From an uncultured Candidatus Saccharibacteria bacterium (GTDB lineage Bacteria; Patescibacteriota; Minisyncoccia; Minisyncoccales; CG1-02-41-26), in the NCBI GenBank assembly GCA_964348225.1, contig CAYGBM010000035.1, positions 9,425 through 73,424 of the forward strand: DNA of 64,000 bases, read 5' to 3'. The translations under genes and the position numbers were made by a program. Shown in pieces: positions 5,735 through 59,880 of the stretch. The notes under the pieces are model-generated. The model saw only the letters and a list, made by a program, of their open reading frames with translations. It had not been told where the DNA came from and did no database searches. Numbering within the stretch: the stretch's first letter is position 1; each line of letters starts with the position of its first letter.

Positions 5735-7135
5735 TTATCTTAAATGTTTTAGATGGGTCTTCTTCACCTGCTGTAATAATTCATTTACTCTGTCGCTAAT
5801 TTTCACTTGGTAGGGGTAATCCTTGTCTAGTTCTAACATTCTTGCTGGAATTTTCTTAACCTGTTCCTTAAGATAGTCTTTAATTTCATCTAAGGAGGGT
5901 TGTTTGTAAACCAACTTGCCCCTTTCCATCATTTTCTTTAAAAGTGGTTCTCCCAGTGCCTCTTCTTCCAAGCCGATAATGTCCTTTTCTAACTTCCCGC
6001 CTTTTCTATAAACCCTAAAAACCTGCTTTCTGCCAGGCAAACTCATCTTGCCCGCTGCCAATTTAGCAACATAGGTAATCTTGTCTCTATCCCTTAGTTC
6101 CGCTACCTTATATACTACCTCTAGTTTCGGTGAGTCTGATAAGGTCATATACTCTGTGGCTAAAGCTACATTATCGCAAGGCACATTTTCCTTAGCTAAC
6201 CTATCAATCTTGTATTCATCCATGTTTGTAGCAACAAAAATCTTTACATAATCCAGCTTATTTTTGTCCAATTCTTTCCTCGCATACCTGGCCCAATGGG
6301 CAATATCTCCGCTGTCAATAAAAATGGAGTAGAGCCTGTGTTTTTCCTTGGCTAATTTTTTAGCTACCTTGATAGCATTTTTAATGCCCTGCTCAGTATC
6401 ATAGGTGTCTACCATAAAAGAAGCGCTATCAGGAGCGAACTGAGCCGCTGCCTCCATTGCTTCTATTTCTGAAGGAAAAGACTTAATGAAAAAATGCTGA
6501 GTAGTGGTATGCGGCCTGCGACGTATTTTCATCTGGTATTTCTTAGGCACCAAAGGAGTAACAGCAACAGACATACCCGCTAGATAAGCAGCACGGCTGG
6601 CTTTCATGCCCGATTCAAAAGAATGGGAACGTAAGGGACCAGTAGCCATAGAGAACTTGCCTTGGCTGGCCAATACCGAACGCACCGCCTTAGTCAAAAA
6701 AGGGACGTTGGAAGCAGCAATATTAATTAAAGCGGCCTCAACTAAAGCAGCGTCAATAATGGGAGCAGTTACCCTGACCATTGGCTCTCCCGGAAAAAAA
6801 GGAGTGCCCTCTTCCATTGCGTAGACCGTGCCTCCGAAACCAAACTTCCTGAGATAGCGGGCAAATTCTTGGCTAATAATGCCTAATTTCATTAGGTATT
6901 TGACGTCTGACTCAGAAAAGCTTAGGTTCGATAAATAATTGAGTATCTCCTCCAAGCCACAAAAAAGCATATAGTTGCGGCGGTTGAACTTCCTAATTGT
7001 TAAATCAAACGTGGCTACCTGTTGAGCCATGCCCTTAGCTAGCCAAATAGAGCCTTCAGTAAAGGTATGAGCCATTGGTATTAAGGGCAAATCCTTTTGT
7101 TGTACAAAATGGGGATGAAGAAGCTTATCTTTCAT
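5735..7135 (-). CDS. pncB: nicotinate phosphoribosyltransferase
   Basis: 466 aa. The N-terminal arrangement (NRRNYMLFCGLEEILNYLSNLSFSESDVKYL) parallels the NAPRTase N-domain. Size and overall layout fit PncB. Confidence 0.6.
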   Translation of the reverse strand: MKDKLLHPHFVQQKDLPLIPMAHTFTEGSIWLAKGMAQQVATFDLTIRKFNRRNYMLFCGLEEILNYLSNLSFSESDVKYLMKLGIISQEFARYLRKFGFGGTVYAMEEGTPFFPGEPMVRVTAPIIDAALVEAALINIAASNVPFLTKAVRSVLASQGKFSMATGPLRSHSFESGMKASRAAYLAGMSVAVTPLVPKKYQMKIRRRPHTTTQHFFIKSFPSEIEAMEAAAQFAPDSASFMVDTYDTEQGIKNAIKVAKKLAKEKHRLYSIFIDSGDIAHWARYARKELDKNKLDYVKIFVATNMDEYKIDRLAKENVPCDNVALATEYMTLSDSPKLEVVYKVAELRDRDKITYVAKLAAGKMSLPGRKQVFRVYRKGGKLEKDIIGLEEEALGEPLLKKMMERGKLVYKQPSLDEIKDYLKEQVKKIPARMLELDKDYPYQVKISDRVNELLQQVKKTHLKHLR

Positions 7136-7202
7136 ACTCTTTAAAAATCTTTCTTTAGCTATTTTAATCTAAATATCTTCTAACGTAAAGCTAAGGGATG
7201 AG

Positions 7203-7247
7203 CAAAAAACGAAAACAGGGGAAAGCTTTTAGTCTTTCTCCTGTTTT
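7203..7247 (-). terminator. intrinsic terminator of the 1593-aa gene
   Basis: On the minus strand: aacaggagaaagacuaaaagcuuuccccuguu followed by uuucguuuuuu. Confidence 0.5.
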
Positions 7248-7314
7248 CACCAAAACACCCAAGAGAGAAAAGAAATCTCCACCTTATAGTTCGGGCTCTT
7301 TCTTGTTTCTTTTA

Positions 7315-10300
7315 TTAAGCGACAATATTAATAACTAAACTAACAACGACCCTGGCGATTAAAACAATGGCAAAACCAACAATCGCCCAAACAACAGTGA
7401 GCTTGCCCCGACGGGCTTTTTCTGGAATACCCGCTGAAGTCATCAGCAAGATAGCGCCTAAGATAATCATTATTGGTGCAATAACAGCTGCAATATAGAA
7501 AATCCACTTAACAACCCGATCAACAATCTCCCAGATGCCAGGCACAGGAATTGGAGGACAAATCACTGTCTGCCCGTCTTCAGCACAAACTCCTGCCCTA
7601 CCCCTTGTTCTTACCCTTGTTTCATTGTCCAGCATACCTATCTCACAATCGTCGTCTGGATCGCAAGCGCACTGCAACCCTGCACTGATATCACAACCCA
7701 TATTTGGCTTAACTGAGCTGATGTTTGAGCCACAACATACCTCTCCTTTTTTGCCCGGTGTACCTGGTTCATCAAGGGCAGCAGCAGCACCGAATAACAA
7801 AGCATGCCCTGAAAAAGAAGTTGTCTGAACAGTAACAGTGTTATTATTCTTATCAATGGTGGCTGGCAGAACATTCCATTGGCTTGTGGATTCATTAAAC
7901 TTAGCAAAAACCAAGCTGTCTTCATCAATTAAGGGATTTTCAGCATACGTAATTGAAACGGTAACGGGCTGAAGAAAGGAAAAGACTCTTTGAGAACCAG
8001 CAATTGCTTTTAGGTCATAAACCACGCCGTTGACTATGAACTTGCCAACAGCCGAGGCAGCATTTAATTCTGACTGGCTGGCTGTCCGTTTTGTCATAAC
8101 AACAACAACGTCTTCTGCAACAGCATTTGATGGAAAAATCACTTTTATATTTCCGTCTGCACTATTGACAGTACCTCCTCCAACACCAATATCGCCTTCA
8201 TTAACTTCCGGCTCAGCGCCCAGGCATTTAGCGCAATAAGATCCGCGTCTATCCTCCCCAAAACAGTAATAGTCCTGGGTTAATATCTGAATATCAAGGC
8301 CGCCGGGACAAACGGCATCGCTTAAAGGAATAGGATTAACAACGCACTGATAATCAGTTCCATATTGGTGAGAGCAGTTAATTAAAGATGGAGCTCCGGG
8401 CCCTAAACATTTCACACAGTAATGAGCCTTGATGGTGCCTTCAAGACAGTATTGGTCATTAGTTAATATTTTAATATCAAGCCCATCGGGACAAACAGTA
8501 TCACTAAAGGGAATTGGGTTGCTGATACATTTATAATCAGGACCATATTGCTCACCGCAATAAATACCTGAGGGTAATTCCGGCGGTTTTTCTTTGGGTA
8601 CAACATTTAAGGTAATTGTTTGGGTCTCTCCCTGAGCAGTAAATATTTTAACTGAAGAGCCGTCTTCCATTAAATAATTGGCTACCTCTACTGCATATCT
8701 CCTGCCATCTGTCACAACTATTGAACAAGGCTCTCCTCCAGGGCCGGTTTGGCGGACAGCAGCAGTGCAACTGCCAGGCCCTAAATAATCTTCTTCCCGG
8801 CAAAGCTTGACGATTGCATTGGGCACTGGAGTATTTTTTTCAATATCAATTACCTCAAAGCTAACTTTTGTCAGGCTGATATCAGGCAGGCAGGCAAAAC
8901 AATAATACTGGGGAAGACCGTTATAATCTAAACAATACTGCTCCCTTTCTGCTGCATGGCACTTATCTACACATTTTTCTTTACAATCATAGTAATCACT
9001 CCTGCTTTCTTCTTTTAAGTGAGCACATTGATTTTTACAATCGGTTGTACAGCTAAAATCCTTTTCTAAAGGAAAAACATCAACCTCTAAACCGCATTCT
9101 GCTCTTGCCTTCTCAACACTTAAGCAAGTGTATCCATCAGGGCAATCCACTGGCTCTTTATCTTCAACCCTGGTTAATTTCAGCCAAATGGTATCTCGCA
9201 TATTGGGAAACGTGTCAAAGGCACGATACCCCCCGTAATCAATATAGCCTTCAGCTGAACCCTTTGCATAATATTTACAATAAGGACATAATTGAACTTC
9301 GCAAGCTCCATTCTTTGAAGTATAGGGTCGGCTCACACAGGATGCTGCTTCTCCTCCCAAGGCAGCAGCAAAAAATACCTTAACTTCTGCCCCAACCACT
9401 GGTTGGCTGACATCATCCACTTTTTCATAGGTTCTAAATTGTACTTGTACGCGCTCTTCTTCTGAGCAAGCATTATATTGGCAAGCATCAGGATCTTGGC
9501 GCATATTGACATCAACTGTCATATAGCTACCGCTTGTTCGGAAAGGCTTGGGACAGTCTGTGCAAAGATAACCATGCGCTTCTGCTTGAACTATATAATC
9601 GGTTTCAGGCACTAAAATTACACTGCAGTAGCCATTATTTCCCTGGCAGCCAGTGACAAAATCGCCTGCTGCTGTAAAAACCTGGACATTAACATTAGGA
9701 ATTCTTTCTATGCCATAAGATGACCTGATAGCAACCAGGAAACCTGTTAGAGTTTCTGTTGGTGCTATAATCTCTTTTGGCTTTAAATAAACTGTTTGAC
9801 CAGGCAAAGCAGTGAAGCCAACCACACAAGCAGTGCCCTGGCATTCATAATTATCCTCCTGGACAAAGGCAGTGTATCTTTGAGTTTCAGCTAGCTTAAC
9901 AGAGCAGGCTCCAGCTCCATCAGTAACACAAGAACCTTTTTCTTTGTCCAAATCACTTCCTTCAACTACCTTAACCAAAACACCAGCTACTGGCTCTCCG
10001 GTTGCTGCTTCCTGTACCTGAAAAGGAACATCGACTATTTCCAGACATAAATTAGGAAGGGGCCAAGTCCGGTCAATAAACACACAACCACCCGTGCCCT
10101 TGCCAAGCTCGTTCAAACATTCATACTCATCACAGACATTGCTAAAAAAGCCATCGCCGCAGGCATCACAGGTGCGTGAAAGAGTAGAACATTCTGCAAC
10201 AACAGCAGAACCACTAGGGTCTCTGACTGCGTTATAAGAAGGTCCTACTGAAAACTGATAACTTTTGCCAGGCTCAAGATTGTTAAAAGTCCAGGAGGCT

Positions 10301-12096
10301 TGCTTTTCAGTCACAGCCTCATGAATCCCTCCCTTGAATAAAATTCCTGAATCACATCTGTACAAATTAGAGAAAGAACCATCAGAAGAATCAGCTAAAG
10401 CATTAACAGTGATACTGGTTTTAGTAATATTAGTACATTCTGCCTTCTTAACAGGCTCAATAGGGGTGGCTGTCATATCCATATATTGATAGGCCGCTCT
10501 GTCCGTAGGACAACCAGGTATAGGCATGGTAGCTGCGTCTCTAGGATTGCAGCCATTAGCATTGCAAACTTGCATCATCCTGACATAAGGAGTATTGGGA
10601 CGAGCCCCTACCCCTATACCGGTTTCTTGCCAAGCGCAATCACTGCCTATGCCACCAGCGCAGACGTCCTGGGGAGAAAGAGAAACTATGAGTTGTCGTG
10701 CTTGGTTGTACAAACGATATTCTGTAACCTCACCCCTAACATGCTTCCACTGCCAAGTAACATTAGGCGGTGCACCCTCATTATTCAAATCAACCATTGC
10801 AGGAGCTGAAGAGTATTTAAAGGTGCACCCTTCTTCATCGTCTTCCACTTTAGCTATCAAATTATTCTCTATTGACCGCAAGCCTACCAAATCATCGCAG
10901 TCAATTGGAACCGTTACTGAATACTCTCCAGGGCTTTCTGTTTTGTTCTCTGACCAAAGCCCTGTTAAAACATATTTTACAGCCACAATGGACTTGGAAA
11001 TATAGGTTTCTTTGTAAACAGAATAGCTTAGCTTAACCTCAGCTGTTTCTCCAGGATAACAGGTTGTTTCAGGACAGGTTAACGACTGGACAACAGCATC
11101 TTGAGGCGCATAGTAGCAATCATTTCCATCGCAGTTTGGGGTCGGACAATCTCTAGCCAAGCGCCATTTGTTATCGCCCGAACATCGATAAACCTTAGCA
11201 TTACTGCCTCCAGAGCCAGCCTCACATTTCTGCAAATCCCCTCCAGCATAGTCGCAATCTTCAAGCCCGCACAGGTCGCACCATTGCCCACTAGGGTTAC
11301 AACAAGCCTTGTCGTCAGGACATTCGCTGTCTTTCTCCCAACAGTCCCAAGCTATGCCTATTTTGCATTTATAAATTACTCCCCCCACGCACTTTTGAAG
11401 CTCTACTCTGTGGTCACAAACATCACAGTCTGAAGGCGGACCTTCTGAAGAAACACACCAAAGCTTTTCATCAAAGCCTCTCTGGCACGTGCCATCACCA
11501 GGTACGCCATCTCCATCTAAATCACAAGGAGTACCTTCAGCTGCTTCTTGATAAGTGCAGTTTCCATCTTCATCGCGACCCACTGTGAAGCAATCTCTTT
11601 CTTGACAATACTCCCTGCACTCCATTGCGCCTCTAACATCAACACATTGTCCTTCTTTACCGCCCCCTAAATCACAGGTTGTGCCAGCTGACAAGGCAGT
11701 ATAAGCACAATCGCCATCTTCATCACGAGCCACGCTATAACACTCTTTTTCTTGGCAAGCCTCTCTGCATTCCATTGTTCCTGCAACATCAATACATTGT
11801 CCTACTTTGTCATCGCCCAAGCTACAAGGCGCCCCCTCTAAGGGAGTATAGGTACACTTTCCGCTTGCTTCATCAAACTCTGCATAATAACACGTTCTGC
11901 CCTCACACTGACAACCCCCGCTGTCCTGTCCCTCAGGGAGGAAACAGGTCAATCCAGCACAGCAATCCGAACTTTGATAACAAACATCCCCATACTCAAC
12001 GCAGTCTGCTGAAGAAGCGAGAGAAGGCGCAAGGATTAAAAAAGCGCCTATGACAAAAAGAGCCAAAGGCAAGAATTTAAATATTTTTTTGGGCAT
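7315..12096 (-). CDS. giant (1593 aa) secreted cysteine-rich surface protein with a C-terminal TrbC/VirB2-like two-helix pilin module
   Basis: Signal peptide MPKKIFKFLPLALFVIGAFLILAPSLASSA. >100 Cys, with tandem ~42-aa Cys repeats near the N-terminus and a ~57-aa repeat pair later. C-terminal ~130 aa (GRAGVCAEDGQTVICPPIPVPG...WIFYIAAVIAPIMIILGAILLMTSAG-IPEKARRGK-LTVVWAIVGFAIVLIARVVVSL) is paralogous to the 177-aa protein at 12262-12795. It has the helix / basic loop / helix layout of T4SS pilins. Confidence 0.6.
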   Translation of the reverse strand: MPKKIFKFLPLALFVIGAFLILAPSLASSADCVEYGDVCYQSSDCCAGLTCFLPEGQDSGGCQCEGRTCYYAEFDEASGKCTYTPLEGAPCSLGDDKVGQCIDVAGTMECREACQEKECYSVARDEDGDCAYTALSAGTTCDLGGGKEGQCVDVRGAMECREYCQERDCFTVGRDEDGNCTYQEAAEGTPCDLDGDGVPGDGTCQRGFDEKLWCVSSEGPPSDCDVCDHRVELQKCVGGVIYKCKIGIAWDCWEKDSECPDDKACCNPSGQWCDLCGLEDCDYAGGDLQKCEAGSGGSNAKVYRCSGDNKWRLARDCPTPNCDGNDCYYAPQDAVVQSLTCPETTCYPGETAEVKLSYSVYKETYISKSIVAVKYVLTGLWSENKTESPGEYSVTVPIDCDDLVGLRSIENNLIAKVEDDEEGCTFKYSSAPAMVDLNNEGAPPNVTWQWKHVRGEVTEYRLYNQARQLIVSLSPQDVCAGGIGSDCAWQETGIGVGARPNTPYVRMMQVCNANGCNPRDAATMPIPGCPTDRAAYQYMDMTATPIEPVKKAECTNITKTSITVNALADSSDGSFSNLYRCDSGILFKGGIHEAVTEKQASWTFNNLEPGKSYQFSVGPSYNAVRDPSGSAVVAECSTLSRTCDACGDGFFSNVCDEYECLNELGKGTGGCVFIDRTWPLPNLCLEIVDVPFQVQEAATGEPVAGVLVKVVEGSDLDKEKGSCVTDGAGACSVKLAETQRYTAFVQEDNYECQGTACVVGFTALPGQTVYLKPKEIIAPTETLTGFLVAIRSSYGIERIPNVNVQVFTAAGDFVTGCQGNNGYCSVILVPETDYIVQAEAHGYLCTDCPKPFRTSGSYMTVDVNMRQDPDACQYNACSEEERVQVQFRTYEKVDDVSQPVVGAEVKVFFAAALGGEAASCVSRPYTSKNGACEVQLCPYCKYYAKGSAEGYIDYGGYRAFDTFPNMRDTIWLKLTRVEDKEPVDCPDGYTCLSVEKARAECGLEVDVFPLEKDFSCTTDCKNQCAHLKEESRSDYYDCKEKCVDKCHAAEREQYCLDYNGLPQYYCFACLPDISLTKVSFEVIDIEKNTPVPNAIVKLCREEDYLGPGSCTAAVRQTGPGGEPCSIVVTDGRRYAVEVANYLMEDGSSVKIFTAQGETQTITLNVVPKEKPPELPSGIYCGEQYGPDYKCISNPIPFSDTVCPDGLDIKILTNDQYCLEGTIKAHYCVKCLGPGAPSLINCSHQYGTDYQCVVNPIPLSDAVCPGGLDIQILTQDYYCFGEDRRGSYCAKCLGAEPEVNEGDIGVGGGTVNSADGNIKVIFPSNAVAEDVVVVMTKRTASQSELNAASAVGKFIVNGVVYDLKAIAGSQRVFSFLQPVTVSITYAENPLIDEDSLVFAKFNESTSQWNVLPATIDKNNNTVTVQTTSFSGHALLFGAAAALDEPGTPGKKGEVCCGSNISSVKPNMGCDISAGLQCACDPDDDCEIGMLDNETRVRTRGRAGVCAEDGQTVICPPIPVPGIWEIVDRVVKWIFYIAAVIAPIMIILGAILLMTSAGIPEKARRGKLTVVWAIVGFAIVLIARVVVSLVINIVA
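8215..8585. repeat. second intragenic tandem duplication (~180 bp x2)
   Basis: Protein segments ...YCGEQYGPDYKCISNPIPFSDTVCPDGLDIKILTNDQYC... and ...CSHQYGTDYQCVVNPIPLSDAVCPGGLDIQILTQDYYC... Confidence 0.6.
11510..11895. repeat. three tandem ~126-bp intragenic repeats encoding C-x-C ~42-aa modules
   Basis: Protein repeats CYYAEFDEASGKCTYTPLEGAPCSLGDDKVGQCIDVAGTMECREACQEKE / CYSVARDEDGDCAYTALSAGTTCDLGGGKEGQCVDVRGAMECREYCQERD / CFTVGRDEDGNCTYQEAAEGTPCD. The DNA repeats are visibly similar. Confidence 0.7.
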
Positions 12097-12111
12097 ATTT
12101 TGATCAATAAA

Positions 12112-12160
12112 ATAGCTTAAAATATTTAAATTTTGAAAAATTTAAATATTTTGATAGCTA
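12112..12160. promoter_or_regulatory. near-perfect 30-bp palindrome (aatatttaaatttt-ga-aaaatttaaatatt) with extended arms, 25-60 bp upstream of the giant-protein start
   Basis: 14-bp perfect inverted arms separated by 2 nt at 12121-12150. Flanking tagct.../...agcta extends the symmetry. Position fits an operator or 5'-UTR hairpin. Confidence 0.4.
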
Positions 12161-12261
12161 AAAACAAAAGCTAAAAAAACCTTTAGTAAGCATTGTTTCA
12201 TTATACACCCTGAAAATAGGGGGTAAAGAAAGTTATCCACACTTAGATATTCTCAATAATC

Positions 12262-12795
12262 TCAGTAATAGGGAACAAAAATACTCATCAATAGATTAAA
12301 AATGACCTTACTTAAAATAACAGCCCCCAAGGCAATTAATGTCCATTTAAGCATCTTGCGAGCTAGGGTAGTTTGGCCAAGAGTGCCTCTTGATGTAACA
12401 TAAAAAAAGCCAACAACAACAAGCATTAGAGAACAAACAGCTATGCCTGGAACGAAAACCCAGTTAAGGAAATTTTCAATTACTCCAAAAACAGTAATAA
12501 CAGGACAAATAACCCTTCTCTCAGAAGGCATACAAAAACCTGCCCTGCCTTGTTTAACAGTTTTTTCACCAGCAGCCATTTCTAAAACACAGTTGTCGCT
12601 AGCGCACTTGCAGCTTAAACTACCGCAATCATTATTTTTACAACAAATTTCTCCCTCATTGTCTTGCGCCTTAACCACCTCTGAGGCAGCAAAAAATAGC
12701 CCAAAACACAGCCCAAAAAGCAGGACAAAAGCTGTAAGTTTCAAACAAAAACTTTTTAAATCAAACTTACAGCTTTCAAAGATTCTTTTTTGCAT
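12262..12795 (-). CDS. TrbC/VirB2-like pilin-family membrane protein with short Cys-rich N-terminal region
   Basis: 177 aa. Signal/TM, then CCKNNDCGSLSCKCASDNC...GRAGFCMPSERRVICPVITVFG, then two hydrophobic helices separated by SRGTLGQTTLARK. Collinear with the C-terminus of the 1593-aa protein. Confidence 0.5.
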   Translation of the reverse strand: MQKRIFESCKFDLKSFCLKLTAFVLLFGLCFGLFFAASEVVKAQDNEGEICCKNNDCGSLSCKCASDNCVLEMAAGEKTVKQGRAGFCMPSERRVICPVITVFGVIENFLNWVFVPGIAVCSLMLVVVGFFYVTSRGTLGQTTLARKMLKWTLIALGAVILSKVIFNLLMSIFVPYY

Positions 12796-12803
12796 ATGTT
12801 CCT

Positions 12804-14174
12804 CTAATTTAATTTTAATTTCTGGAATTCTTCACGAACAACCTTCCGGTCGTCCCAAGGGATTTTTTTGCCCTTTTCAACACAAATCCAGGGCTCACAC
12901 CCCTTGCCAGTGATAATCACTGTGTCACCGGGCTTAGCTAACTCCAGTGCCTTTCTAATAGCCTCCCGCCTATCCAAAACCTTAAACACCTGGCGTCGAA
13001 GGAACCGAGTTCCTTCGACAACGCCTTTGGCTATCTGGTTGATGATTTCCATGGGGTTTTCGTCATAAGGGTCTTCATTAGTAATAATAACTTCCCTGCA
13101 ATGCTTGGCTGCAATCTCCCCAAGAATGGGCCTTTTCCACTTGTCCCTTCCGCCCCCACATGCCCCTAAAACGCAAACGAGTTTGCGTTCAGTTATTAGT
13201 TGTTGGTTGTTGGTTGTTAGATTCTGGCTATTATTTATTAAAGTCTGATAAACTTGTTGAAGGGCGTCGGGGGTGAAGGCATAATCTACTACTACTCGGA
13301 ATGGTTCTAAGATAACCTCTTCCATTCTGCCTGGTATCCCTTTTGCTCTCTCCAGCGCCTTTTTACAAATTTCAAGAGAAACCCCCTGCGACAAAGCCAC
13401 ACTTATTGCTGCCAGCGCATTATATACATTAAAGCCGCCTAATAGTTTTAAAGAAAAAAGCATTTCGTCAATTTTAAAATTAACCCCACTTTCCGTTTCT
13501 TGCGCTTGAGTGGCTTTAATGAATTTCCAATTTTCAATTTTCAATTTCCAATCAATTTTCAATTTTTCAATTTTCAATTCGTCCAAACCGAAACAAAACT
13601 TTTGTCGGCTGGGAAAATTCAAAAAATACTCGGCATTTTCATCATCTATATTAATAATATGCATGCCTTTACACTTCTTAAAGTATGCTGATTTTGCTTT
13701 TTTGTAATTTTCAAAACTGCCGTGATGCTCAATATGCTCTTTAAACAAGTTGGTGAAAACCATTGTATCAAATCTAATAAACCTGTGTCTGTGCTGGAGC
13801 ACGCCCTCTGAGGTAACCTCTAAAACAGCGTATTTACAGCCCTTATTCACTGCTTCTCTTAAAAACTTCTGCAACAAACCTCTGCCTGGCATTGTCATCT
13901 TAAGCCTGTTTTCTTTCTCTTTCTCAGCAATTCTAAACTTTATTGAACAAGAACAAGCTGTTTTAAAACCAGCTTGTTCTAAAATTTGGGTTGCCAAATC
14001 AACCACGGTTGTTTTGCCGTGAGTACCGGTTACGCCAATAACCTTGAGTCTTCGTGAAGGAAACCTGTAAATCAAAGCACCTAAAAAAGCCCAGGCAAAA
14101 TGATAAAAGCCAACTAAAAACGAAGGAATAAGTTTCTTAAGAAAATTCTCTGACATATTAATTATTTGTACCAC
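12804..14174 (-). CDS. Mur ligase family protein, MurE-like (UDP-MurNAc-tripeptide synthetase)
   Basis: VIGVTGTHGKTT P-loop. DYAFTPDAL matches MurE DYAHTPDAL. CGGGRDKWKRP and NEDPYDENP resemble MurE C-terminal motifs. Unusual N-terminal TM segment. Contains an in-frame copy of the ttggaaatt/caattttcaa repeat family (~13510-13600, LKIEKLKIDWKLKIENWKF) and a (ttggttg)n microsatellite at 13191-13220 encoding LTTNNQQL. Confidence 0.6.
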   Translation of the reverse strand: MVQIINMSENFLKKLIPSFLVGFYHFAWAFLGALIYRFPSRRLKVIGVTGTHGKTTVVDLATQILEQAGFKTACSCSIKFRIAEKEKENRLKMTMPGRGLLQKFLREAVNKGCKYAVLEVTSEGVLQHRHRFIRFDTMVFTNLFKEHIEHHGSFENYKKAKSAYFKKCKGMHIINIDDENAEYFLNFPSRQKFCFGLDELKIEKLKIDWKLKIENWKFIKATQAQETESGVNFKIDEMLFSLKLLGGFNVYNALAAISVALSQGVSLEICKKALERAKGIPGRMEEVILEPFRVVVDYAFTPDALQQVYQTLINNSQNLTTNNQQLITERKLVCVLGACGGGRDKWKRPILGEIAAKHCREVIITNEDPYDENPMEIINQIAKGVVEGTRFLRRQVFKVLDRREAIRKALELAKPGDTVIITGKGCEPWICVEKGKKIPWDDRKVVREEFQKLKLN

Positions 14175-33902: not shown

Positions 33903-35210
33903 GTGCAAAAGATTATTGGCCAAATAACGATTGAGCCAGCCCGCCTAAAACAGCTTACCTCATCGATAAAGAATATTGCTGCTTTGCAAAAAGAGCTTAA
34001 GGTGGGCTTGGCTAAAGAAACAACCCAGCTTTTGGAGATTGTTTTGGTGGGGGCAATAAATCTTGAAGCATCTGATGTTCACATAGAGCCTGGAGAGGAA
34101 AAAACCAAATTCAGGTTAAGGGTTGACGGAATGCTCCACGACATTGCCCTCACTGACCCAAAAATCTACGAAAGCCTTCTTTCCAGAATCAAGCTTTTGT
34201 CGGGTATTAAGTTGAATATTACCGAGCAGGCTCAAGACGGCAGGTTCAGCGTAGAGCTTGGTCAAAAAACAATAGAGATAAGAAGCTCAACCCTGCCCTC
34301 GGAATATGGAGAGGCCATTGTTTTAAGAATTTTGGATCCGAAAAACTTAATCGAAATAGAGAAGCTTGGCATTCGAGAAGATATAATAGAGGTTTTCAAA
34401 AAAGAAATCTCCCAGCCCAACGGCATGGTTATTATAACCGGCCCCACTGGCTCTGGTAAAACCACAACCTTGTATTCAATTTTAAACAGGATCAAAAGGG
34501 AAGAACTCAAGATAATAACTATTGAAGACCCCATTGAATATCATTTAGAAGGAATCTCTCAAAGCCAAGTTAATCCAAAAAAGAGCTATGATTTTGCCAC
34601 AGGGCTTCAATCAATTGTCCGGCAAGACCCTGATGTAATATTAGTGGGCGAAATCAGAGACCTGGAAACAGCGAAAATCGCCATTCAGGCCGCCCTGACA
34701 GGCCATCTGGTTCTAACCACCCTCCACACCAATGATGCAGCAGGCACCATTGCCAGGCTCCAAGCCCTGGGAGAAAAGCCTGTAAATATTGCTCCAGCCA
34801 TCAGGTTGGCGGTTGCTCAGAGGCTGGTTAGAAGAGTCTGTGAAAAATGTTCCAAGCTCACAACTGTTTCTCCAAAAGACTTAGCCCGACTTAAGCAAGG
34901 CTTGAAGGCCCTGCCTAAGAAAGCAAAAACAAGCATAAAACTTCCTGTGTTGGGCAAAAAATTAAAAATTCCCAAGACCAAAGGCTGCAAATACTGCAAC
35001 TTTACTGGATTTCGGGGCAGAACGGGCGTGTTTGAATTTTTTCTGGTTGATGACGAAATGGAAAACTTTGTTGTGAAATCTCCTTCTATTGCTGAATTAC
35101 GGAAAAAAGCAAGGCTAAGAGGCATGGTTAGCATGAAAGAAGATGCCCTAATCAAGGTTATCAAAGGCATCACCACTATTGAAGAAGTGGAGAGGGTGGT
35201 TGGAAGATAA
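33903..35210 (+). CDS. type II/IV secretion-family ATPase (PilB/GspE-like)
   Basis: Walker A VIITGPTGSGKTTTLYSIL, DPIEY, Walker B/His box ILVGEIRD / GHLVLTTLHTND. Tetracysteine C-x2-C ... C-x2-C zinc motif (CEKCSK...CKYCNF). Confidence 0.85.
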   Translation: MQKIIGQITIEPARLKQLTSSIKNIAALQKELKVGLAKETTQLLEIVLVGAINLEASDVHIEPGEEKTKFRLRVDGMLHDIALTDPKIYESLLSRIKLLSGIKLNITEQAQDGRFSVELGQKTIEIRSSTLPSEYGEAIVLRILDPKNLIEIEKLGIREDIIEVFKKEISQPNGMVIITGPTGSGKTTTLYSILNRIKREELKIITIEDPIEYHLEGISQSQVNPKKSYDFATGLQSIVRQDPDVILVGEIRDLETAKIAIQAALTGHLVLTTLHTNDAAGTIARLQALGEKPVNIAPAIRLAVAQRLVRRVCEKCSKLTTVSPKDLARLKQGLKALPKKAKTSIKLPVLGKKLKIPKTKGCKYCNFTGFRGRTGVFEFFLVDDEMENFVVKSPSIAELRKKARLRGMVSMKEDALIKVIKGITTIEEVERVVGR

Positions 35211-36549: not shown

Positions 36550-36860
36550 AAACCATGAAGAAAACAAGGCTTTTGCCTATTTTAACTATTTTTTTCTTAG
36601 CTGTGCTAATAACAGGAGGGAGCTGGTTTTACGCAAGAAAACCCCTTACACTTGATGCTTCAATAACAAAGAGGGGGCTCCCTCTGCCTTATTGGATCCA
36701 CACAACAGCAGCCTTCGACTTTGGCAGAGATCATCTGCCAACATTCTCACCAAAATGGCATTGGTCAATTATGGCTGTGGATTTTGTTTTTTGGTGTTTA
36801 GTCTTAGGAATGGGCTATTTGTTTTTAAGACTCTTTTTAAAACGAAAAAAATCAGAATGA
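36546..36860 (+). CDS. small 2-TM membrane protein
   Basis: 104 aa. Overlaps ruvB stop and the start of the next gene (ATGA), so it sits in the operon. Confidence 0.4.
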   Translation: MKTMKKTRLLPILTIFFLAVLITGGSWFYARKPLTLDASITKRGLPLPYWIHTTAAFDFGRDHLPTFSPKWHWSIMAVDFVFWCLVLGMGYLFLRLFLKRKKSE

Positions 36861-38164
36861 GAAAAAGGGCTCTAAAACCAAAGGCTTGTTTTTTAGGAAC
36901 TCTTTCGCTTCTATTTTTGCTACTCCCTCTCTGTCGGGCTTTTGCTGGAGAGCAAGCGCTTTTCATCAACGAGATTGCCTGGATGGGCACTGAAGCTTCC
37001 TCTTATGATGAGTGGATTGAATTGTATAATAACTCGGACTTCCCTGTGGGCCTTGATGGCTGGAGGCTGCAGGCCACAGACGACACTCCAGACATCAAGA
37101 TTTCAGGTACTATCCCTGCTGGGGGATTTTTTCTTTTAGAGAGAACGAACGACGAAACGCTACCTAGTATCTCAGCTGATCTAATTTACAAGGGCGCCTT
37201 GAGCAATCAAGGAGAATACCTAAGGCTTATCAACGAACAAGGAGAGATTATTGATGAAATTGACTGTTCCTCTGGCTGGCTAGCTGGCAACAACGCAACC
37301 AAACAAACAATGGAGAGGGTCAGACCTATGTCTGACCCTAATGAGTGGCAGACGAGCCAAGAGCCAGGCGGCACCCCCAAACAACAAAACAGCCAATTGC
37401 CCGAAGATGGGCCTCGGGTAACTTCAGAAACAACAATGCCAGAAGAAACGCTGCCCGAGGACAAACCTTCACTGCCCGAGGACGGGCCTCGGGCAACTGA
37501 GAATGTGTTTATTAATGAGGTTATGCCCTCTCCTGAGGGTCCTGATGCTGAAAATGAGTGGATTGAGCTCTTCAATGTCAATGGGTTTGAGGTTGACCTA
37601 TCAAATTGGCAGCTCAGAGACAGGGTTGGAGCCTTCAAAACATATACCTTTCCCCAGAATACAAGCATTGCTGCTTTTGGATTTCTTCTCTGTCCCAGGA
37701 CAGAAACCAGTATTACTCTTCAAAACAGTGGTGATATCTTGGAGCTTTTAAGCCCTGGAGGAGAAATTGCCCATTCAATAGAATATCCAAAAGCCTCCCG
37801 GGGTCAGTCTTATAACAGATTGCCAGAGAAAGAACCCTTAACAAAGCAGGGTGTTTCAAATTGGCAATGGAGCACAACCCCAACACCTGGAACAGAAAAC
37901 CTTATTAGCCAGCCCCAAAAAGGGGAGACAGCGCAAGAAAAAGAACAGACAGAAGCTCAATCCCTTGATCAACCAAGCCAGCAAACCAGTTCTGCTGGAA
38001 AAGAAGCAAGCAAAAAGGGCTTTGATTTAGAAGAAAAAACCACAGCTGATGTAAGCAAGGAAATGCCTAAACCCTCAAAACGTTTTTTAACCTTTTTAAC
38101 AGCTGTTTCTCTGGCTATTCTGTCTGCTGTAATCGTTTTAATTATCAAGAAAAAATCTCAATAG
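36857..38164 (+). CDS. lamin-tail-domain (LTD) protein with signal peptide, two LTD repeats and C-terminal TM anchor
   Basis: Start moved to MRKRALKPKACFLGTLSLLFLLLP. LFINEIAWMGTEASSYDEWIELYNNSDFPVGLDGWRLQ and VFINEVMPSPEGPDAENEWIELFNVNGFEVDLSNWQLRD are LTD signatures. C-terminal FLTFLTAVSLAILSAVIVLIIKKKSQ. Confidence 0.65.
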   Translation: MRKRALKPKACFLGTLSLLFLLLPLCRAFAGEQALFINEIAWMGTEASSYDEWIELYNNSDFPVGLDGWRLQATDDTPDIKISGTIPAGGFFLLERTNDETLPSISADLIYKGALSNQGEYLRLINEQGEIIDEIDCSSGWLAGNNATKQTMERVRPMSDPNEWQTSQEPGGTPKQQNSQLPEDGPRVTSETTMPEETLPEDKPSLPEDGPRATENVFINEVMPSPEGPDAENEWIELFNVNGFEVDLSNWQLRDRVGAFKTYTFPQNTSIAAFGFLLCPRTETSITLQNSGDILELLSPGGEIAHSIEYPKASRGQSYNRLPEKEPLTKQGVSNWQWSTTPTPGTENLISQPQKGETAQEKEQTEAQSLDQPSQQTSSAGKEASKKGFDLEEKTTADVSKEMPKPSKRFLTFLTAVSLAILSAVIVLIIKKKSQ

Positions 38165-39690: not shown

Positions 39691-40146
39691 TCAGTATTCC
39701 CCCGGAAAGTTGCTTTCCGGAACTTGGTCTTGGAAAGAAAGGCTCCAAATAACCTGCTCCCCGTCTCCATCAACATCCCCACGAGCATAGACTATACAAC
39801 CCTTGCTGTAAGCCTCAACCCGATACTGGTAATAGACCTCATTGGGGCTAAAACCAATGCTGTCCCATTTTCTACGAGCTTCAGTGTCTTTTGGCCAAGA
39901 GATTGAGGAAACGCCAGGGACCTCAGAAGGACACCAGGGCAGTTCCCTATAAACCCCATGCTCTGCCTTGTACCTCTCTTGGCAATCCCGGATCTTCTGT
40001 AGATTCATCTTCATCTCTGACTCTCTTGCCTCGTTCTGAAACATCAGAAAGGAACGAATAGCTATAGCGGCCAGGAAAGCAATGATGGCAACCACGATCA
40101 TAAGCTCAATCAGTGAAAAACCTCTGGTTTTAACCATATCACCCAA
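39691..40146 (-). CDS. type IV pilin (prepilin-type N-terminal cleavage/methylation domain)
   Basis: KTRG-FSLIELMIVVAIIAFLAAIAI is a classic class III signal peptide with a hydrophobic N-terminal helix. The likely start is the second Met (MVKTRG...). Confidence 0.85.
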   Translation of the reverse strand: MGDMVKTRGFSLIELMIVVAIIAFLAAIAIRSFLMFQNEARESEMKMNLQKIRDCQERYKAEHGVYRELPWCPSEVPGVSSISWPKDTEARRKWDSIGFSPNEVYYQYRVEAYSKGCIVYARGDVDGDGEQVIWSLSFQDQVPESNFPGEY

Positions 40147-50295: not shown

Positions 50296-50634
50296 TTGGC
50301 TGTTTTGGGGGCTTTGGGGGTGGTGTTATTTCTTCTTTGGTATGTACTTCCAAAGATTATCTTCTTTGTGGTGGTTTTCTTTGTGCTGGCTTTATTTATG
50401 GTGCTTAACTTCCTGAAGATTGAGGGCCAGAAAGTTTATGAAATCTTAACGACCTCCTTTAGCTTCCTTTTTTCCAAGAGAAAATATCTTTGGCAGAAGA
50501 AAGAAGGGTTAAAACCCATAAAGGTTGTAAGAAAAAGAAAAAAAGAAAAAAAGAAAGAGGAAGCTCCCTTAAGACTTGCTCCAAAGAGCAGACTGGGGCA
50601 AATCAAGTCAAAAATAGAGCTTGGACCAAAATGA
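50296..50634 (+). CDS. VirB3-like small membrane protein (TTG start)
   Basis: 112 aa. Two N-terminal TM helices and a lysine-rich tail. Stop overlaps the start of the VirB4 N-domain ORF (ATGA). Position immediately upstream of VirB4 is typical of VirB3-like proteins. Confidence 0.45.
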   Translation: MAVLGALGVVLFLLWYVLPKIIFFVVVFFVLALFMVLNFLKIEGQKVYEILTTSFSFLFSKRKYLWQKKEGLKPIKVVRKRKKEKKKEEAPLRLAPKSRLGQIKSKIELGPK

Positions 50635-51266
50635 GACTAGCTGCCCAATCTTTTTTACAATTTGACCAGATTAGGGAAGGGGTAATTGTGCTGAAGAACA
50701 AAGCCTTGAGAGGGATCTTGATGGTGTCTTCGGTAAACTTTGAATTGAAGTCAGCAGAAGAACAAGACGCCATCATTTTTCAGTTCCAGAATTTTTTGAA
50801 TTCCTTAGACTTTTCCTGTCAAATCATCATTCAATCAAGAAGACTCAACATCACCGGCTATTTTGAGAAGTTAAAAGAGCTTGAACGAGGGCAAAAGAAT
50901 GAGCTGTTAAAAATCCAGACCATTGAGTACCGAAAGTTTGTGGAAAAACTGGTGGCTAAAGGAACCATCATGACAAAACAGTTTTTTGTTGTTGTGCCCT
51001 ATACCATAGGCGAAATGCGGGGTATAAAATCTACAACCCCCTTTAAAAAAGGCGTGAGCATGGCTTTGACTGAAGAGGTATTCCAAAGATGTAGAGATCA
51101 GCTTTACCAGCGGATGGAATTTGTGGGCATTGGCTTGAGAAGATCTGGGTTGGGGGTTGTGCCTCTGACCACTCCCGAGCTCATCGAACTCCTTTGGGGC
51201 TGGCACCATCCAAAAGAATCAGAGGTTGGCTATTACCCCGAGATTTTACCAGAGTTTATGAAGTAA
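50631..51266 (+). CDS. virB4: VirB4/TrbE-family ATPase, N-terminal domain encoded as a separate ORF
   Basis: Start at MRLAAQSF. The block LQFDQIREGVIVLKNKALRGILMVSSVNFELKSAEEQDAIIFQFQNFLNSL...QIIIQS is the hallmark N-terminus of Gram-positive-type VirB4 proteins (I-dG-I...NF-L-S-eEQ). Ends 2 nt before the ATPase ORF, in a different frame. Confidence 0.6.
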   Translation: MRLAAQSFLQFDQIREGVIVLKNKALRGILMVSSVNFELKSAEEQDAIIFQFQNFLNSLDFSCQIIIQSRRLNITGYFEKLKELERGQKNELLKIQTIEYRKFVEKLVAKGTIMTKQFFVVVPYTIGEMRGIKSTTPFKKGVSMALTEEVFQRCRDQLYQRMEFVGIGLRRSGLGVVPLTTPELIELLWGWHHPKESEVGYYPEILPEFMK

Positions 51267-51268
51267 TC

Positions 51269-53089
51269 ATGAAACTTCCCTCTTTTTTCAAAAAAGGAAA
51301 AATTATTGAAAAGCTGGAAATCCAACCAGCAGAGATCAAGGTAGAGGACATTATTGCCCCCTCTTCCATTGAGGTAAAGCAGAACTACATTAAGCTGGGC
51401 GAGAGGTTCTGCAAGTCGTTCTTTGTTTTCTCTTACCCAAGGTATCTCTCTGCTGGCTGGCTTTCCCCTGTTGTTAACCTGAATTATTCTCTTGATATCA
51501 GTTTGCACATCCACCCCGTTGACACCGGGGCTGTTTTGAAAAGGCTGCGCAAAAAACTCACTGAAATCCAAGCTGAACTCGGGGAGAGGCAGGAAAAGGG
51601 ACTAATCAGAGACCCAGCTTTGGAGACAGCCTACAAAGATATTGAGCAGCTAAGAGACGAGCTTCAAACAGCCAGAGAAAGGGTTTTTCGCTTAGGGCTT
51701 TACCTTACTGTTTATGGTGATGATGACAAAGAATTAAGAGCGGTTGAAAGCCTTATCAGGTCAATTTTTGAGGCAAGATTAATCTATGTTAAACCAACTC
51801 TAATGAGAGAGAAAAAGGGGTTTTTCTCAACCCTTCCCTATGGGCTGGACCAAATACTGGTTCACACCCCTATGAACACTGCCCCTCTCTCTAGCATGTT
51901 TCCCTTTGTTTCTCCAGACCTGAGCGCCAACGAGGGGATCCTTTATGGCTTGAATATGCACAACAGCTCAATGGTTTTGTTTGATAGGTTCAGCTTAGAG
52001 AACGCGAACATGGTCGCCTTCGCTAAGAGTGGAGCTGGCAAGTCGTATTTCTGCAAGCTGGAAGTGCTTCGTTATCTGATGCAAGACATCGGCGTCATTG
52101 TCATAGACCCGGAGAACGAGTATGAGTTCCTGTCTGATGCTGTTGGTGGGGCTTTCTTTAAAATATCTTTAACCTCTCCTCACCACTTAAACCCTTTTGA
52201 CTTACCACCCGTTGAAGACAGAACACCAGAAGACGTTATAAGAACGAATGTTATTAACCTGGTCGGACTTTTAAGAATAATGCTCGGGGGGCTGACCCCA
52301 ACAGAGGACGCCATAATTGATAGAGCCTTAACTGAAACGTATGCTGCCAAGGACATTACCCCGGACAGTGACCCTTCAACCTGGAAAGACAAAATCCCTA
52401 TAATGTCTGATTTTGAAGCAGTGCTTTCTGGTATGGAGGGGACAGAGTCTTTACTCAAAAGGGTGAGAAAGTTTACCAAGGGGAGTTATGCTGCTTTTTT
52501 TAACAGCCCTTCAAATGTTTCTTTAGACCAGAATCTTATTATATTCGGAATCCGCGACATGGAAGATGAGCTTCGTCCTATGGCAACCTTTATTATCTTG
52601 AGATACATCTGGAATCAAATCAGGTCGGTGATGAAAAAGAGGATTCTGCTGGTTGATGAAGCCTGGTGGTTGATGCAGACAGAGGACGGGGCTTCTTTCT
52701 TGTTTGGTATTTGCAAAAGAGCAAGGAAATACTGGCTGGGCGTTTCAACCATCACTCAGGATGTTTCAGACTTTATGGGGTCAGCCTACGGCAAGCCTAT
52801 TATTACCAACTCTTCTTTGCAGCTTTTAATGAAGCAAAGCCCAGCCACCATTGATGTTGTCCAAAAAACCTTTAATCTGACCGAGGGTGAAAAGAATACT
52901 CTTCTTCAATGCGATGTTGGGGAAGGCATCTTTATCGCTGGACAAAAAAGAGTGGCTTTAAAGGTTATTGCTTCTTACGCTGAAGACCAGTTTATAACAA
53001 GCTCGCCAGAAGAAGTGAAAAAAATTAAAGAAGCCAAAAAGAAAATGATTAAAGAAGGCTACGCCCCACCAAGAAGGGGCATGTCTTAG
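51269..53089 (+). CDS. virB4: VirB4/TrbE-family ATPase, ATPase portion
   Basis: Start at MKLPSFF. FVFSYPRYLSAGWL...LHIHPVD block. Walker A AFAKSGAGKSYF. Walker B RILLVDEAWWLM. C-terminal GICKRARKYWLGVSTITQDVSDF. Confidence 0.8.
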   Translation: MKLPSFFKKGKIIEKLEIQPAEIKVEDIIAPSSIEVKQNYIKLGERFCKSFFVFSYPRYLSAGWLSPVVNLNYSLDISLHIHPVDTGAVLKRLRKKLTEIQAELGERQEKGLIRDPALETAYKDIEQLRDELQTARERVFRLGLYLTVYGDDDKELRAVESLIRSIFEARLIYVKPTLMREKKGFFSTLPYGLDQILVHTPMNTAPLSSMFPFVSPDLSANEGILYGLNMHNSSMVLFDRFSLENANMVAFAKSGAGKSYFCKLEVLRYLMQDIGVIVIDPENEYEFLSDAVGGAFFKISLTSPHHLNPFDLPPVEDRTPEDVIRTNVINLVGLLRIMLGGLTPTEDAIIDRALTETYAAKDITPDSDPSTWKDKIPIMSDFEAVLSGMEGTESLLKRVRKFTKGSYAAFFNSPSNVSLDQNLIIFGIRDMEDELRPMATFIILRYIWNQIRSVMKKRILLVDEAWWLMQTEDGASFLFGICKRARKYWLGVSTITQDVSDFMGSAYGKPIITNSSLQLLMKQSPATIDVVQKTFNLTEGEKNTLLQCDVGEGIFIAGQKRVALKVIASYAEDQFITSSPEEVKKIKEAKKKMIKEGYAPPRRGMS

Positions 53090-59390: not shown

Positions 59391-59880
59391 TATAAATTAA
59401 GAATTGAAAATTAATAATTAAGAATTTAATTAAAAATTAAAAATTGTTGTGAGGTATTCAAATAAAGAAGAATTCAAGAAAGCGCTTAAGAAAAGAGCTT
59501 ACAACTTTTCAATCCAATTGGTGAACTTTACCGAAGGATTACCCAGGGGCAACACTTGCTTTATTATTGGCAATCAACTTCTTCGCAGTGGAACAAGTAT
59601 TGGTGCAAACATTGTAGAAGCCCAGGGCGCGAGCTCAAAAAGAGACTTCATTAATTTTCTCACCTATGCTTTTAAATCTTCCAATGAAACCAGATATTGG
59701 CTCGGCCTTTTACGAGATACAGAAAAAGCAGATCAAGAACAGGCTAATAGTTTGTTAACAGAAGCAGATGAGCTTTCAAAAATATTGAGTTCAATTCTGT
59801 TGTCCTTAAAAGGAAAAAAATAATTCTTAATTCTTAATTAAATTTTTAATTCTTAATTCTTAATTTTTAATTCATATAAG
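59391..59880. mobile_element. four-helix-bundle gene carried in the loop of an AT-rich palindromic element (IVS-like cassette)
   Basis: Left half-element 59391-59448 (aattaagaatt... motifs). Right half 59824-59880 (aattcttaatt... motifs, the reverse complement). The halves match the left and right arms of the intact hairpins at 48594 and 50047. Confidence 0.55.
59449..59823 (+). CDS. four-helix-bundle protein (TIGR02436; 23S rRNA intervening-sequence protein family)
   Basis: GTG start. YNFSIQLVNFTEGLPRGNTCFIIGNQLLRSGTSIGANIVEAQGASSKRDFINFLTYAFKSSNETRYWLGLLRD matches the family pattern (...R.A.SI..NIAEG..R.S.K.F..FL.IA.GS..E..T.L). Confidence 0.7.
   Translation: MRYSNKEEFKKALKKRAYNFSIQLVNFTEGLPRGNTCFIIGNQLLRSGTSIGANIVEAQGASSKRDFINFLTYAFKSSNETRYWLGLLRDTEKADQEQANSLLTEADELSKILSSILLSLKGKK

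Follow-up and report, generated by a model that had tools for sequence, protein, structure and literature searches.

Small VirB2-like pilins, encoded in arrays, are the closest described counterparts of the proteins considered here. Such pilins are essential in Southlakia epibionticum, the one member of the Patescibacteria tested genetically (PMC10633639). A survey of 3035 Patescibacteria genomes found VirB2-like pilins in 1948 assemblies, near virB4 in 1135, and reported neither a separate adhesin nor an adhesin of the PrgB type (PMC12102498). VirB5, like VirB2, is absent from Gram-positive type IV secretion systems (T4SSs) according to a review, the Patescibacteria being the one exception (PMC12857230). 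The present analysis concerns a 64,000-nucleotide stretch of DNA from an uncultured Candidatus Saccharibacteria bacterium (contig CAYGBM010000035.1, positions 9,425 to 73,424; hereafter the window), and in particular a gene pair at positions 7315-12795 that encodes a protein of 1593 amino acids (aa), here called the giant, and a 177-aa neighbor. The giant carries a VirB2-like pilin hairpin at its C-terminus, behind a predicted ectodomain of ~1450 aa; a 2095-aa protein, encoded elsewhere in the window beside a VirB4-type ATPase, begins with a hairpin that is related at the profile level.

The window resembles the published arrays (PF18895, SEML1_0014-0019) in several respects: the proteins have a signal peptide and then two helices joined by a basic loop, the distribution is the same at phylum level, a T4SS lies near dnaA, and the paralogues are ~25% identical (PMC10633639, PMC12102498). 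Published pilins are small: the genes SEML1_0017-0019 measure 381-417 bp and the Pfam matches of SEML1_0014-0019 end by about residue 180. By size (a precursor of about 110-190 aa) the 177-aa protein belongs with them, whereas the 1593-aa and 2095-aa proteins do not. Unlike in the published arrays, the pilin module here ends a 1593-aa protein or starts a 2095-aa protein, and the giant and its neighbor are encoded outside the T4SS cluster. The giant and its neighbor also possess an eight-cysteine (8-Cys) knot, which is undescribed in both of these studies (PMC10633639, PMC12102498).

The other known conjugative pilins (TraA of F, VirB2 of the T pilus, TrbC of RP4 and the archaeal pilin 8dfu) belong to diderm or archaeal envelopes, and several of them are cyclised or acetylated at their termini. 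We know of no conjugative pilin with a domain of more than 1000 aa. Fusions of a pilin with an adhesive or otherwise bulky domain do occur elsewhere, in the type IV minor pilins CofB and TcpB with their large C-terminal domains, in GspK of the type II secretion system and in FimH, the tip adhesin of a chaperone-usher pilus. These follow the same design logic, in which the pilin module enters the filament and the bulky domain keeps the protein rare or at the tip, in a position to initiate assembly or to bind a receptor; their folds and machines are unrelated to those discussed here, so that the likeness is one of analogy and not of homology. VirB5 in diderms and PrgB in Gram-positive conjugation fill the role proposed here, contact with the target cell, as separate proteins that are not fused to a pilin, and neither the giant nor the 2095-aa protein has a VirB5 or PrgB match in Pfam at E<=1. 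The large Cys-rich proteins of Peribacteria, likened here by description, are similarly large (mean 1655 aa), carry a signal peptide and many cysteines, are predicted to be extracellular and have been proposed to act in attachment; the study that describes them reports neither a pilin hairpin nor a T4SS link (PMC4736985). Small Patescibacteria VirB2-like pilins, their arrays, a T4SS near dnaA and large Cys-rich exoproteins are thus known; a pilin hairpin fused to a giant ectodomain is not mentioned in the literature searched.

A giant protein ending in a pilin module

The giant is encoded at 7315..12096 on the minus strand and contains 107 cysteines (6.7%). Directly upstream, at 12262..12795 on the same strand, lies the gene for the small pilin of 177 aa, which has 12 cysteines. 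The coordinates and lengths of both open reading frames (ORFs), and of the 2095-aa ORF, are exactly those of the first-pass annotation, which was made from the sequence alone. The two proteins are composed as follows.

12010..12096, minus strand: giant, Sec-type signal peptide, aa 1-29 (MPKKIFKF, hydrophobic core, cleavage between SLASSA and DC), from hydropathy and charge
8209..12009, minus strand: giant, Cys-rich mosaic ectodomain, aa 30-1296, from Pfam and jackhmmer repeats
7786..8205, minus strand: giant, penultimate domain, aa 1298-1437, from alignments with other giants
7540..7743, minus strand: giant, 8-Cys knot (CC..C..C.C..C..G.C..CP), aa 1452-1519, directly before helix 1, from BLASTP, conserved cysteines and AlphaFold2
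7318..7539, minus strand: giant, VirB2-like pilin hairpin, aa 1520-1593 (helix 1, loop SAGIPEKARRGKLT, helix 2), from PF18895, a lineage profile and AlphaFold2
12667..12795, minus strand: 177-aa pilin, signal peptide, aa 1-43, predicted cleavage after VKA, from hydropathy and charges
12496..12666, minus strand: 177-aa pilin, 8-Cys knot, aa 44-100, from BLASTP and AlphaFold2
12265..12495, minus strand: 177-aa pilin, VirB2-like hairpin, aa 101-177, with helices at 102-134 and 139-173 and a basic loop, from PF18895, the lineage profile and AlphaFold2

Over 158 columns, the C-terminal 161 aa of the giant match residues 33-172 of its 177-aa neighbor at 26% identity (BLASTP E=2e-17), and the motifs CC..N, GRAG.C and VICP.I.V.G are present in this alignment as had been claimed. 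The alignment had been described as extending over a Cys-rich pre-helix segment and both hydrophobic helices. The Cys-rich segment is similar when compared by itself (E=1e-8, 35% identity), whereas the two-helix hairpins by themselves give no BLASTP alignment, and in sequence they are related at the profile level only.

It is at this profile level that the two hairpins are recognized as pilins. The Pfam family PF18895 (T4SS_pilin) matches the giant at aa 1520-1588 with 38.8 bits, above the gathering cut-off of 26.6, and the 177-aa protein with 25.6 bits, 1 bit under it. A lineage hidden Markov model (HMM), built from 68 relatives with the window's own proteins left out, was run without filters over the 660 window ORFs of at least 40 aa, and gave 106.4 bits for the giant and 72.7 bits for the 177-aa protein. 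Since bona fide small pilins range from 72 to 130 bits on this model, the hairpin of the giant lies inside their range and above its bare neighbor, which suggests that it is under pilin-like constraint and is not a generic anchor. PF18895, the lineage HMM and BLASTP thus agree with the earlier reading of the 177-aa protein as a bare VirB2-like pilin, and of the giant as a Cys knot and hairpin behind a ~1450-aa ectodomain. As far as sequence can tell, the giant is a real, conserved gene that ends in a bona fide VirB2-like member of the T4SS_pilin family. The further notion that the 177-aa protein is a minimal copy of the giant's own module had to be abandoned: the module is 23-26% identical to the neighboring pilin and 38-42% identical to the modules of giants from other genomes, so that by sequence it groups with giants elsewhere and its partner in the window is distant.

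The lineage HMM matches only one further protein among the 660 ORFs: residues 50-115, at the N-terminus of the 2095-aa protein, score 28.7 bits (E=3.9e-8). Cut out as a 140-aa segment, this N-terminus scores 34.0 bits, and the best of 4000 shuffles (2000 full and 2000 kept within helix 1, loop and helix 2) scores 12.4. It has no pairwise BLASTP similarity to the modules of the giant or the 177-aa protein, reaches only 12.7 bits on PF18895 and is without the Cys-rich pre-helix module, which is common to the giant and the 177-aa protein only. Because of the profile match and the clean shuffle control, all three hairpins are assigned by sequence profile to one family. The hairpin claimed earlier at this N-terminus is therefore upheld by the lineage HMM and the shuffles and has no pairwise counterpart; the word "analogous" applies to it at the profile level only.

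Between the signal peptide and the penultimate domain, the giant is a mosaic. Three Cys repeats at aa 62-198, detected as internal repeats by jackhmmer, form its N-terminal end. They are followed by an fn3 domain at aa 550-618 (Pfam E=3.2e-5, under the gathering cut-off), a CxxCGxG module at aa 626-690, four CarboxypepD_reg-like β-sandwiches at aa 688-776, 798-849, 883-972 and 1077-1161 (CarboxypepD_reg: Pfam E=0.0028, likewise under the gathering cut-off), and two further Cys repeats at aa 1175-1294.

Predicted topology and structure models

Topology was derived by rule, from hydropathy, charge and the positive-inside rule, and the cleavage site of the giant was taken from the -3/-1 rule. At the start of all three proteins, a positively charged n-region leads into a hydrophobic core, which is followed by a small-residue -3/-1 site. 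By charge counts their inter-helix loops contain four to five K/R and at most one D/E (K/R=4 and D/E=1 in the giant, K/R=5 in the 2095-aa protein), so that under the positive-inside rule the loops should be cytoplasmic and the hairpins N-out/C-out. Residues 30-1520 of the giant with all 107 cysteines, and residues 118-2095 of the 2095-aa protein with 76 cysteines, are accordingly predicted to lie outside the cell. Pilins of the F pilus have both termini on the outer side, with the loop lining the lumen (PMC5018250), which makes the argument from outward geometry a sound one. The first-pass annotation had placed the giant domains outside the cell whether the hairpin is C-terminal or N-terminal, and these rules lead to the same placement.

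AlphaFold2 models, made with 46-50 family sequences, show the hairpins of the giant's C-terminus and of the 177-aa protein as two helices of ~32-35 residues with a predicted local distance difference test (pLDDT) of 90-97. In the giant the Cys knot is modeled as four short strands at a pLDDT of about 90. The knot of the 177-aa protein reaches about 94, its signal peptide includes a helix at 13-36, and the mean pLDDT of this model is 82.9. Foldseek returned no PDB structure at E<=0.001, the best values being 3.5 for the C-terminal model of the giant and 0.29 for the 177-aa model, and the fold match to conjugative pilins, including the archaeal PDB 8dfu, is not statistically discriminating. Fold prediction, which had been suggested as a check, hence yields confident helices and a structural match that does not discriminate; a fold search cannot discriminate a two-helix hairpin, and sequence profiles are the better link. 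When PDB sequences were searched with the giant, with the module profile or with a profile of the penultimate domain, no meaningful match emerged.

Recurrence of the C-terminal cassette

An exhaustive HMM search, in which a two-sequence profile of the module was compared with 1.84 billion representatives, retrieved 13,391 proteins at E<=1e-3. The best 150 matches are mostly pilins of 120-220 aa, with a few large proteins that have a single C-terminal module (1529, 1407, 1348, 722 and 464 aa). All 50 family members tested match PF18895 and ten of the 50 match PF04956 (TrbC/VirB2; best E=5e-5), as P0092 does; neither protein of the window pair matches PF04956 directly in the Pfam scan. Searches of a word index for homologues, made with the C-terminal module, with the full-length giant or with the alignment of the penultimate domain, found nothing or the query only.

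The same cassette, which consists of the ~140-aa penultimate domain, the 8-Cys knot and the hairpin, in that order, stands at the C-terminus of at least six further proteins from Patescibacteria, with lengths of about 890 to 1529 aa. The carriers include P0010, P0027, P0087/P0153, L001 and L004, and their last ~290 aa match the giant with E=1e-29 to 1e-40. The giant of L004 measures ~1080 aa (stop-to-stop ORF 1100 aa) and that of P0153/L094 1420 aa; the L001 example is an 889-aa fragment cut at the contig end. All related genome loci are labelled Patescibacteria (Gribaldobacteria, Nealsonbacteria, Paceibacterota). A family of such proteins, as proposed by the first-pass annotation, therefore exists. 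The Cys knot is common to the giants and the small pilins, and its cysteines are conserved in the alignment.

Only two regions are held in common between these proteins and the giant of the window, namely the last ~290 aa and the CxxCGxG/β-sandwich module at aa 626-776, the latter with P0027, L004 and L001. The remaining ectodomains differ from giant to giant and include CarboxypepD_reg/prealbumin-like, Ig-like, fn3, CARDB, Kazal and antistasin domains. Judged from these assignments, their domain vocabulary is that of bacterial surface adhesins.

As a rule, the giants come with a bare pilin of their own Cys-knot subfamily. Such a pilin adjoins the giant in three of the four complete contexts, the window included: it is upstream in the window and in L004 and downstream with a 4-nt overlap in L094, and L093 has no adjacent bare pilin. 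The module of the L094 giant has its closest relative in this partner pilin (45% identity). The order gyrA, S-adenosylmethionine (SAM)-methyltransferase, giant, PGA_cap, infC, argS is found in L004, L093, L094 and L001, the giant being accompanied in some of them by a small pilin or an MFS-like fragment. This conserved synteny suggests that in the lineage of these four loci the giant belongs to the chromosome and is stably inherited, rather than being carried by mobile elements. The pair in the window occupies a different chromosomal site. A scan of viral contigs revealed no relative, and a phage origin is therefore unsupported.

The failure of the hairpins to align by BLASTP when taken alone would also be expected if the giant were an artefact, produced by mis-assembly or by the joining of two genes, with a similarity to pilins that reflects only transmembrane composition. 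This explanation is refuted by the results and has next to no probability left, given that the architecture recurs in at least six independent assemblies with conserved synteny, that the Cys-knot alignment is significant without transmembrane residues, and that the shuffle control is clean and no other membrane protein among the 660 window ORFs matches the HMM.

A separate observation from the same search is the presence of "polypilins", single polypeptides with two to eight tandem T4SS_pilin hairpins, such as P0003 (820 aa), P0004 (552 aa) and P0012. They have one N-terminal signal peptide and ~30-aa linkers, and neither a stop nor a further signal peptide interrupts them. Of the top 150 matches, more than half contain two or more hairpins, and polypilins are not described in the literature searched.

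The 2095-aa protein and the VirB4 locus

The window contains a T4SS locus, beside the dnaA region, and the giant/pilin pair lies 38 kb away from it. The features of the locus are listed below.

50296..50634, plus strand: PrgI/VirB3-like small membrane protein (BLASTP E=6e-14 to a PrgI-family protein of locus L073)
50631..51266, plus strand: TraC-N-like protein, upstream of VirB4 (57% identical, E=9e-94, to L073 9299..9955)
51194..53089, plus strand: VirB4-type ATPase, 631 aa (Pfam TraG P-loop E=7.8e-28, AAA_10)
53101..53445, plus strand: 2095-aa protein, aa 1-115, signal peptide, YPSLPG motif and divergent hairpin at aa 50-115 (lineage HMM)
53452..59385, plus strand: 2095-aa protein, aa 118-2095, predicted extracellular domain with 76 Cys, largely helical (from sequence)

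The product of 50296..50634 has a weak Pfam PrgI match of its own (E=0.088), and L073 9299..9955 matches Pfam TraC_F_IV. An ATGA start/stop overlap at 50631..50634 couples the PrgI/VirB3-like and TraC-N-like ORFs. The 2095-aa ORF (53101..59388, plus strand) starts 12 bp after VirB4, and the protein matches no Pfam family above threshold. An identity with VirB6/TrbL was considered and rejected, as the protein, apart from its signal peptide, has only two helices where at least five would be expected, and does not match TrbL (PF04610); a true TrbL homologue is present as a separate gene in L073.

The position of this gene is conserved. Eighty metagenome loci encode a VirB4 that is 61-75% identical to that of the window, 64 of them with at least 1.5 kb of downstream sequence, and in 53 of these 64 an ORF with an N-terminal hairpin starts within 1.5 kb after VirB4. 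Besides a signal peptide, the encoded proteins have the motifs [YW]P.LPG and NPxL, a pilin-like hairpin and a variable domain that measures 200-1400 aa; their N-termini match that of the 2095-aa protein (whole-protein phmmer E about 7e-6 to 5e-22). One to four such genes follow one another in a locus (L013-L092; for example L073 12195..18034, L092 11758..17904 and L040 4141..10116). Among 86 complete examples the median length is 514 aa, 23 are of at least 800 aa and the longest has 1551 aa. The recurrence in 53 of 64 loci suggests that the 2095-aa protein is the local, unusually large member of a conserved component of the T4SS locus, and that the hairpin tolerates large fusions within such loci, with one to four of them per locus and sizes of up to 1551 aa. 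Small bare pilins are nearly absent from the VirB4 neighborhoods examined.

Two loci present a different arrangement. L055 492..3050 (853 aa) and L025 4184..4897 (238 aa) encode a C-terminal hairpin of another pilin subfamily, with the motif VPCGR...C...HFFLL, preceded by Cys-containing fn3-like repeats and located 5-7 kb upstream of VirB4 (7 kb in L055).

Downstream of the 2095-aa gene in the window, between two giant genes, a 124-aa protein (59449..59823, plus strand) belongs to the 23S rRNA-intervening sequence protein family (PF05635, E=5.9e-26); there is no rRNA near it. The ORF that follows (59881..64000, plus strand) runs off the window end and encodes more than 1373 aa of a Cys-rich protein with a signal peptide. 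It has no Pfam match, no pilin hairpin in the visible part and no significant similarity to the 2095-aa protein. The ectodomains of the giant, the 2095-aa protein and this protein likewise show no significant mutual similarity, and thus the three are not paralogues beyond the hairpin.

The penultimate domain and possible shedding

In every cassette giant a domain of ~140 aa stands directly before the pilin module, and an HMM of this domain matches giants only. Five of six giants have H-[FL]-[ST] at its end, and the giant of the window has S-F-S. For two of the six sequences ZU5 (PF00791) is the top Pfam match, below threshold (E=0.07-0.15; 12.8 bits against a cut-off of 21). Self-cleavage at an H-F-S motif is known from some ZU5 and Nup98-type domains of eukaryotes. 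A ZU5-like or GAIN-like penultimate domain might by the same token cleave itself at H-[FL]-[ST], in which case the ectodomain would be held non-covalently on a pilin stub and freed on contact or under force, as a shed or effector protein. We regard this explanation as improbable. The constant position of the domain, the H-F/L-S/T end in five of the six giants and the ZU5 match invite it, whereas the Pfam scores are far under the cut-off, the window giant with its S-F-S is without the histidine, AlphaFold2 models the domain at a pLDDT of only 37-62, and neither a profile search of PDB sequences nor a word-index search for homologues found anything. The PF00791 threshold not having been reached, and the window sequence reading S-F-S, the ZU5 identity was left as an unproven lead.

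Pilus subunit or membrane anchor

The chances seem to us about even that the giant is a pilin-anchored adhesin, possibly a tip or minor subunit of a pilus. According to this proposal, the 1593-aa protein would be exported by Sec and would fold outside the cell into a disulfide-rich chain of β-sandwich and Cys-knot domains, while its last 74 residues, the PF18895 hairpin with its basic cytoplasmic loop, would hold it in the cytoplasmic membrane. The VirB4 machine would then extract hairpins from the membrane and polymerise them, with the bare pilin building the shaft. Being too bulky for every position, the giant would enter first or only occasionally and come to lie at the tip or sparsely along the filament. 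At the tip it would present its adhesive ectodomain to the host cell that epibiotic bacteria need. What we infer is that the giant is adhesive, that it assembles together with the bare pilin and that it depends on VirB4.

A rival explanation, a real possibility although one that falls short of even, is that the hairpin is a membrane anchor only. The giant would then stay fixed to the cell as a surface or envelope protein (an adhesin, a surface-layer-like or a matrix-binding protein) with a C-terminal anchor borrowed from pilins, the T4SS would neither extract nor polymerise it, and the small pilin beside it would be functionally independent. Genomic location agrees with such an anchor. The giant/pilin loci are set amid housekeeping genes with no T4SS gene within 10 kb: VirB4 was found within this distance in none of 12 genome loci with a Cys-knot pilin or giant, nor in L093 or L094, and the link between giant and VirB4 consists of a shared contig and of family-level knowledge only. 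Hairpin-plus-large-domain proteins of the N-terminal type, on the other hand, are integral to VirB4 loci, which argues against the anchor explanation. The association with the VirB4 system that the first-pass annotation had inferred for the whole family is visible in the gene order of the N-terminal type (53 of 64 loci); for the C-terminal type, none of 14 loci has VirB4 within 10 kb.

The hairpin itself can be argued in both directions. The two hairpins of the window pair are not detectably similar in pairwise comparison, which is unexpected for subunits packed side by side, and polypilins show the module as an ordinary transmembrane unit, so that it may also work while purely embedded in the membrane. 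Yet the hairpin of the giant keeps all positions that are conserved in the family and scores like those of true small pilins, the extracellular Cys knot of the bare pilins is kept although an anchor would have no need of it, and a bare pilin is adjacent in three of four complete contexts. As to bulk, an ectodomain of 1450 aa would be unable to fit every position of a filament, to judge from the 87 Å F pilus (PMC5018250), and this accords with an anchor.

Further points weigh against a role in an adhesive pilus. Patescibacteria T4SSs are credited in a review with only the "potential to elaborate conjugative pili" (PMC12857230), and no paper that visualises a Patescibacteria conjugative pilus was found in the literature searched. 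The suggestion of adhesion draws on domain types only. The earlier proposal that the giants are adhesins or minor pilins is thus matched by the presence of adhesin-type domains (CarboxypepD_reg, fn3, Ig-like, Kazal), and its functional part stays conjectural. Co-assembly of the giant with the bare pilin is nevertheless preferred over mere anchoring, because its hairpin and Cys knot are conserved like those of small pilins, because the pairing with a bare pilin recurs and because large hairpin fusions are standard inside VirB4 loci.

In a broader scheme, which we offer tentatively and consider rather unlikely as a whole, the essential T4SS filament of Patescibacteria would consist of VirB2-type hairpins that occur as bare pilins, as tandem polypilins, or with a giant domain attached at the N-terminus or at the C-terminus, which makes four formats in all. 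Each giant fusion, an adhesin joined covalently to a pilin, would nucleate the pilus or cap it and would select the host cell, taking the place of VirB5 or PrgB, and a pre-pilin domain with an H-F-S end might add a self-cleaving, force-sensitive release.

Gene context and remainder of the window

The Mur-ligase gene at 12804..14174 is separated by 8 bp from the gene for the 177-aa pilin, a spacer of 165 bp lies between the pilin and giant genes, and a nicotinate phosphoribosyltransferase gene is found downstream of the giant gene. The spacer contains one promoter-like feature.

12200..12227, minus strand: promoter-like site TTTACC, 16 nt, TATAAT, in the pilin/giant spacer, agreeing with 10 of 12 consensus positions

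This is the top match to a sigma-70-like consensus in 7000..13000. The count of sites in the promoter and terminator scan of the region was not above that of shuffles, and the site is therefore a lead only.

The remainder of the window is occupied by housekeeping genes (metK, rtcB, ruvABC, uvrB, polA, PBP1a, dnaN, dnaA, rnpA, yidC, jag), its G+C content is about 0.41, and no Rfam family, not even a tRNA, was found at gathering score in the 64 kb. This low G+C content, the T4SS beside dnaA and the Patescibacteria label of every related genome locus agree in indicating a Patescibacterium. Genes related to type IV pili are also present (33903..35210 and 36692..38164, plus strand; 39691..40146, minus strand): one for a PilB-like T2SSE ATPase, another for a lamin-tail-domain protein and a third for a prepilin that has the N-terminal methylation motif.

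Implications

Cultivated Patescibacteria live attached to other bacteria, and both the T4SS and its pilins are essential to the one species that is genetically tractable. A pilin hairpin joined to a fast-evolving, disulfide-rich ectodomain of 1000-2000 aa provides concrete candidates for the determinants of host recognition, and the giants link two observations that had been made separately, VirB2-like pilins and large Cys-rich exoproteins. If the proposed role is correct, the giant would be the first VirB2-type pilin-adhesin fusion known to us, and conjugative-type pilins would be seen to tolerate very large terminal fusions.

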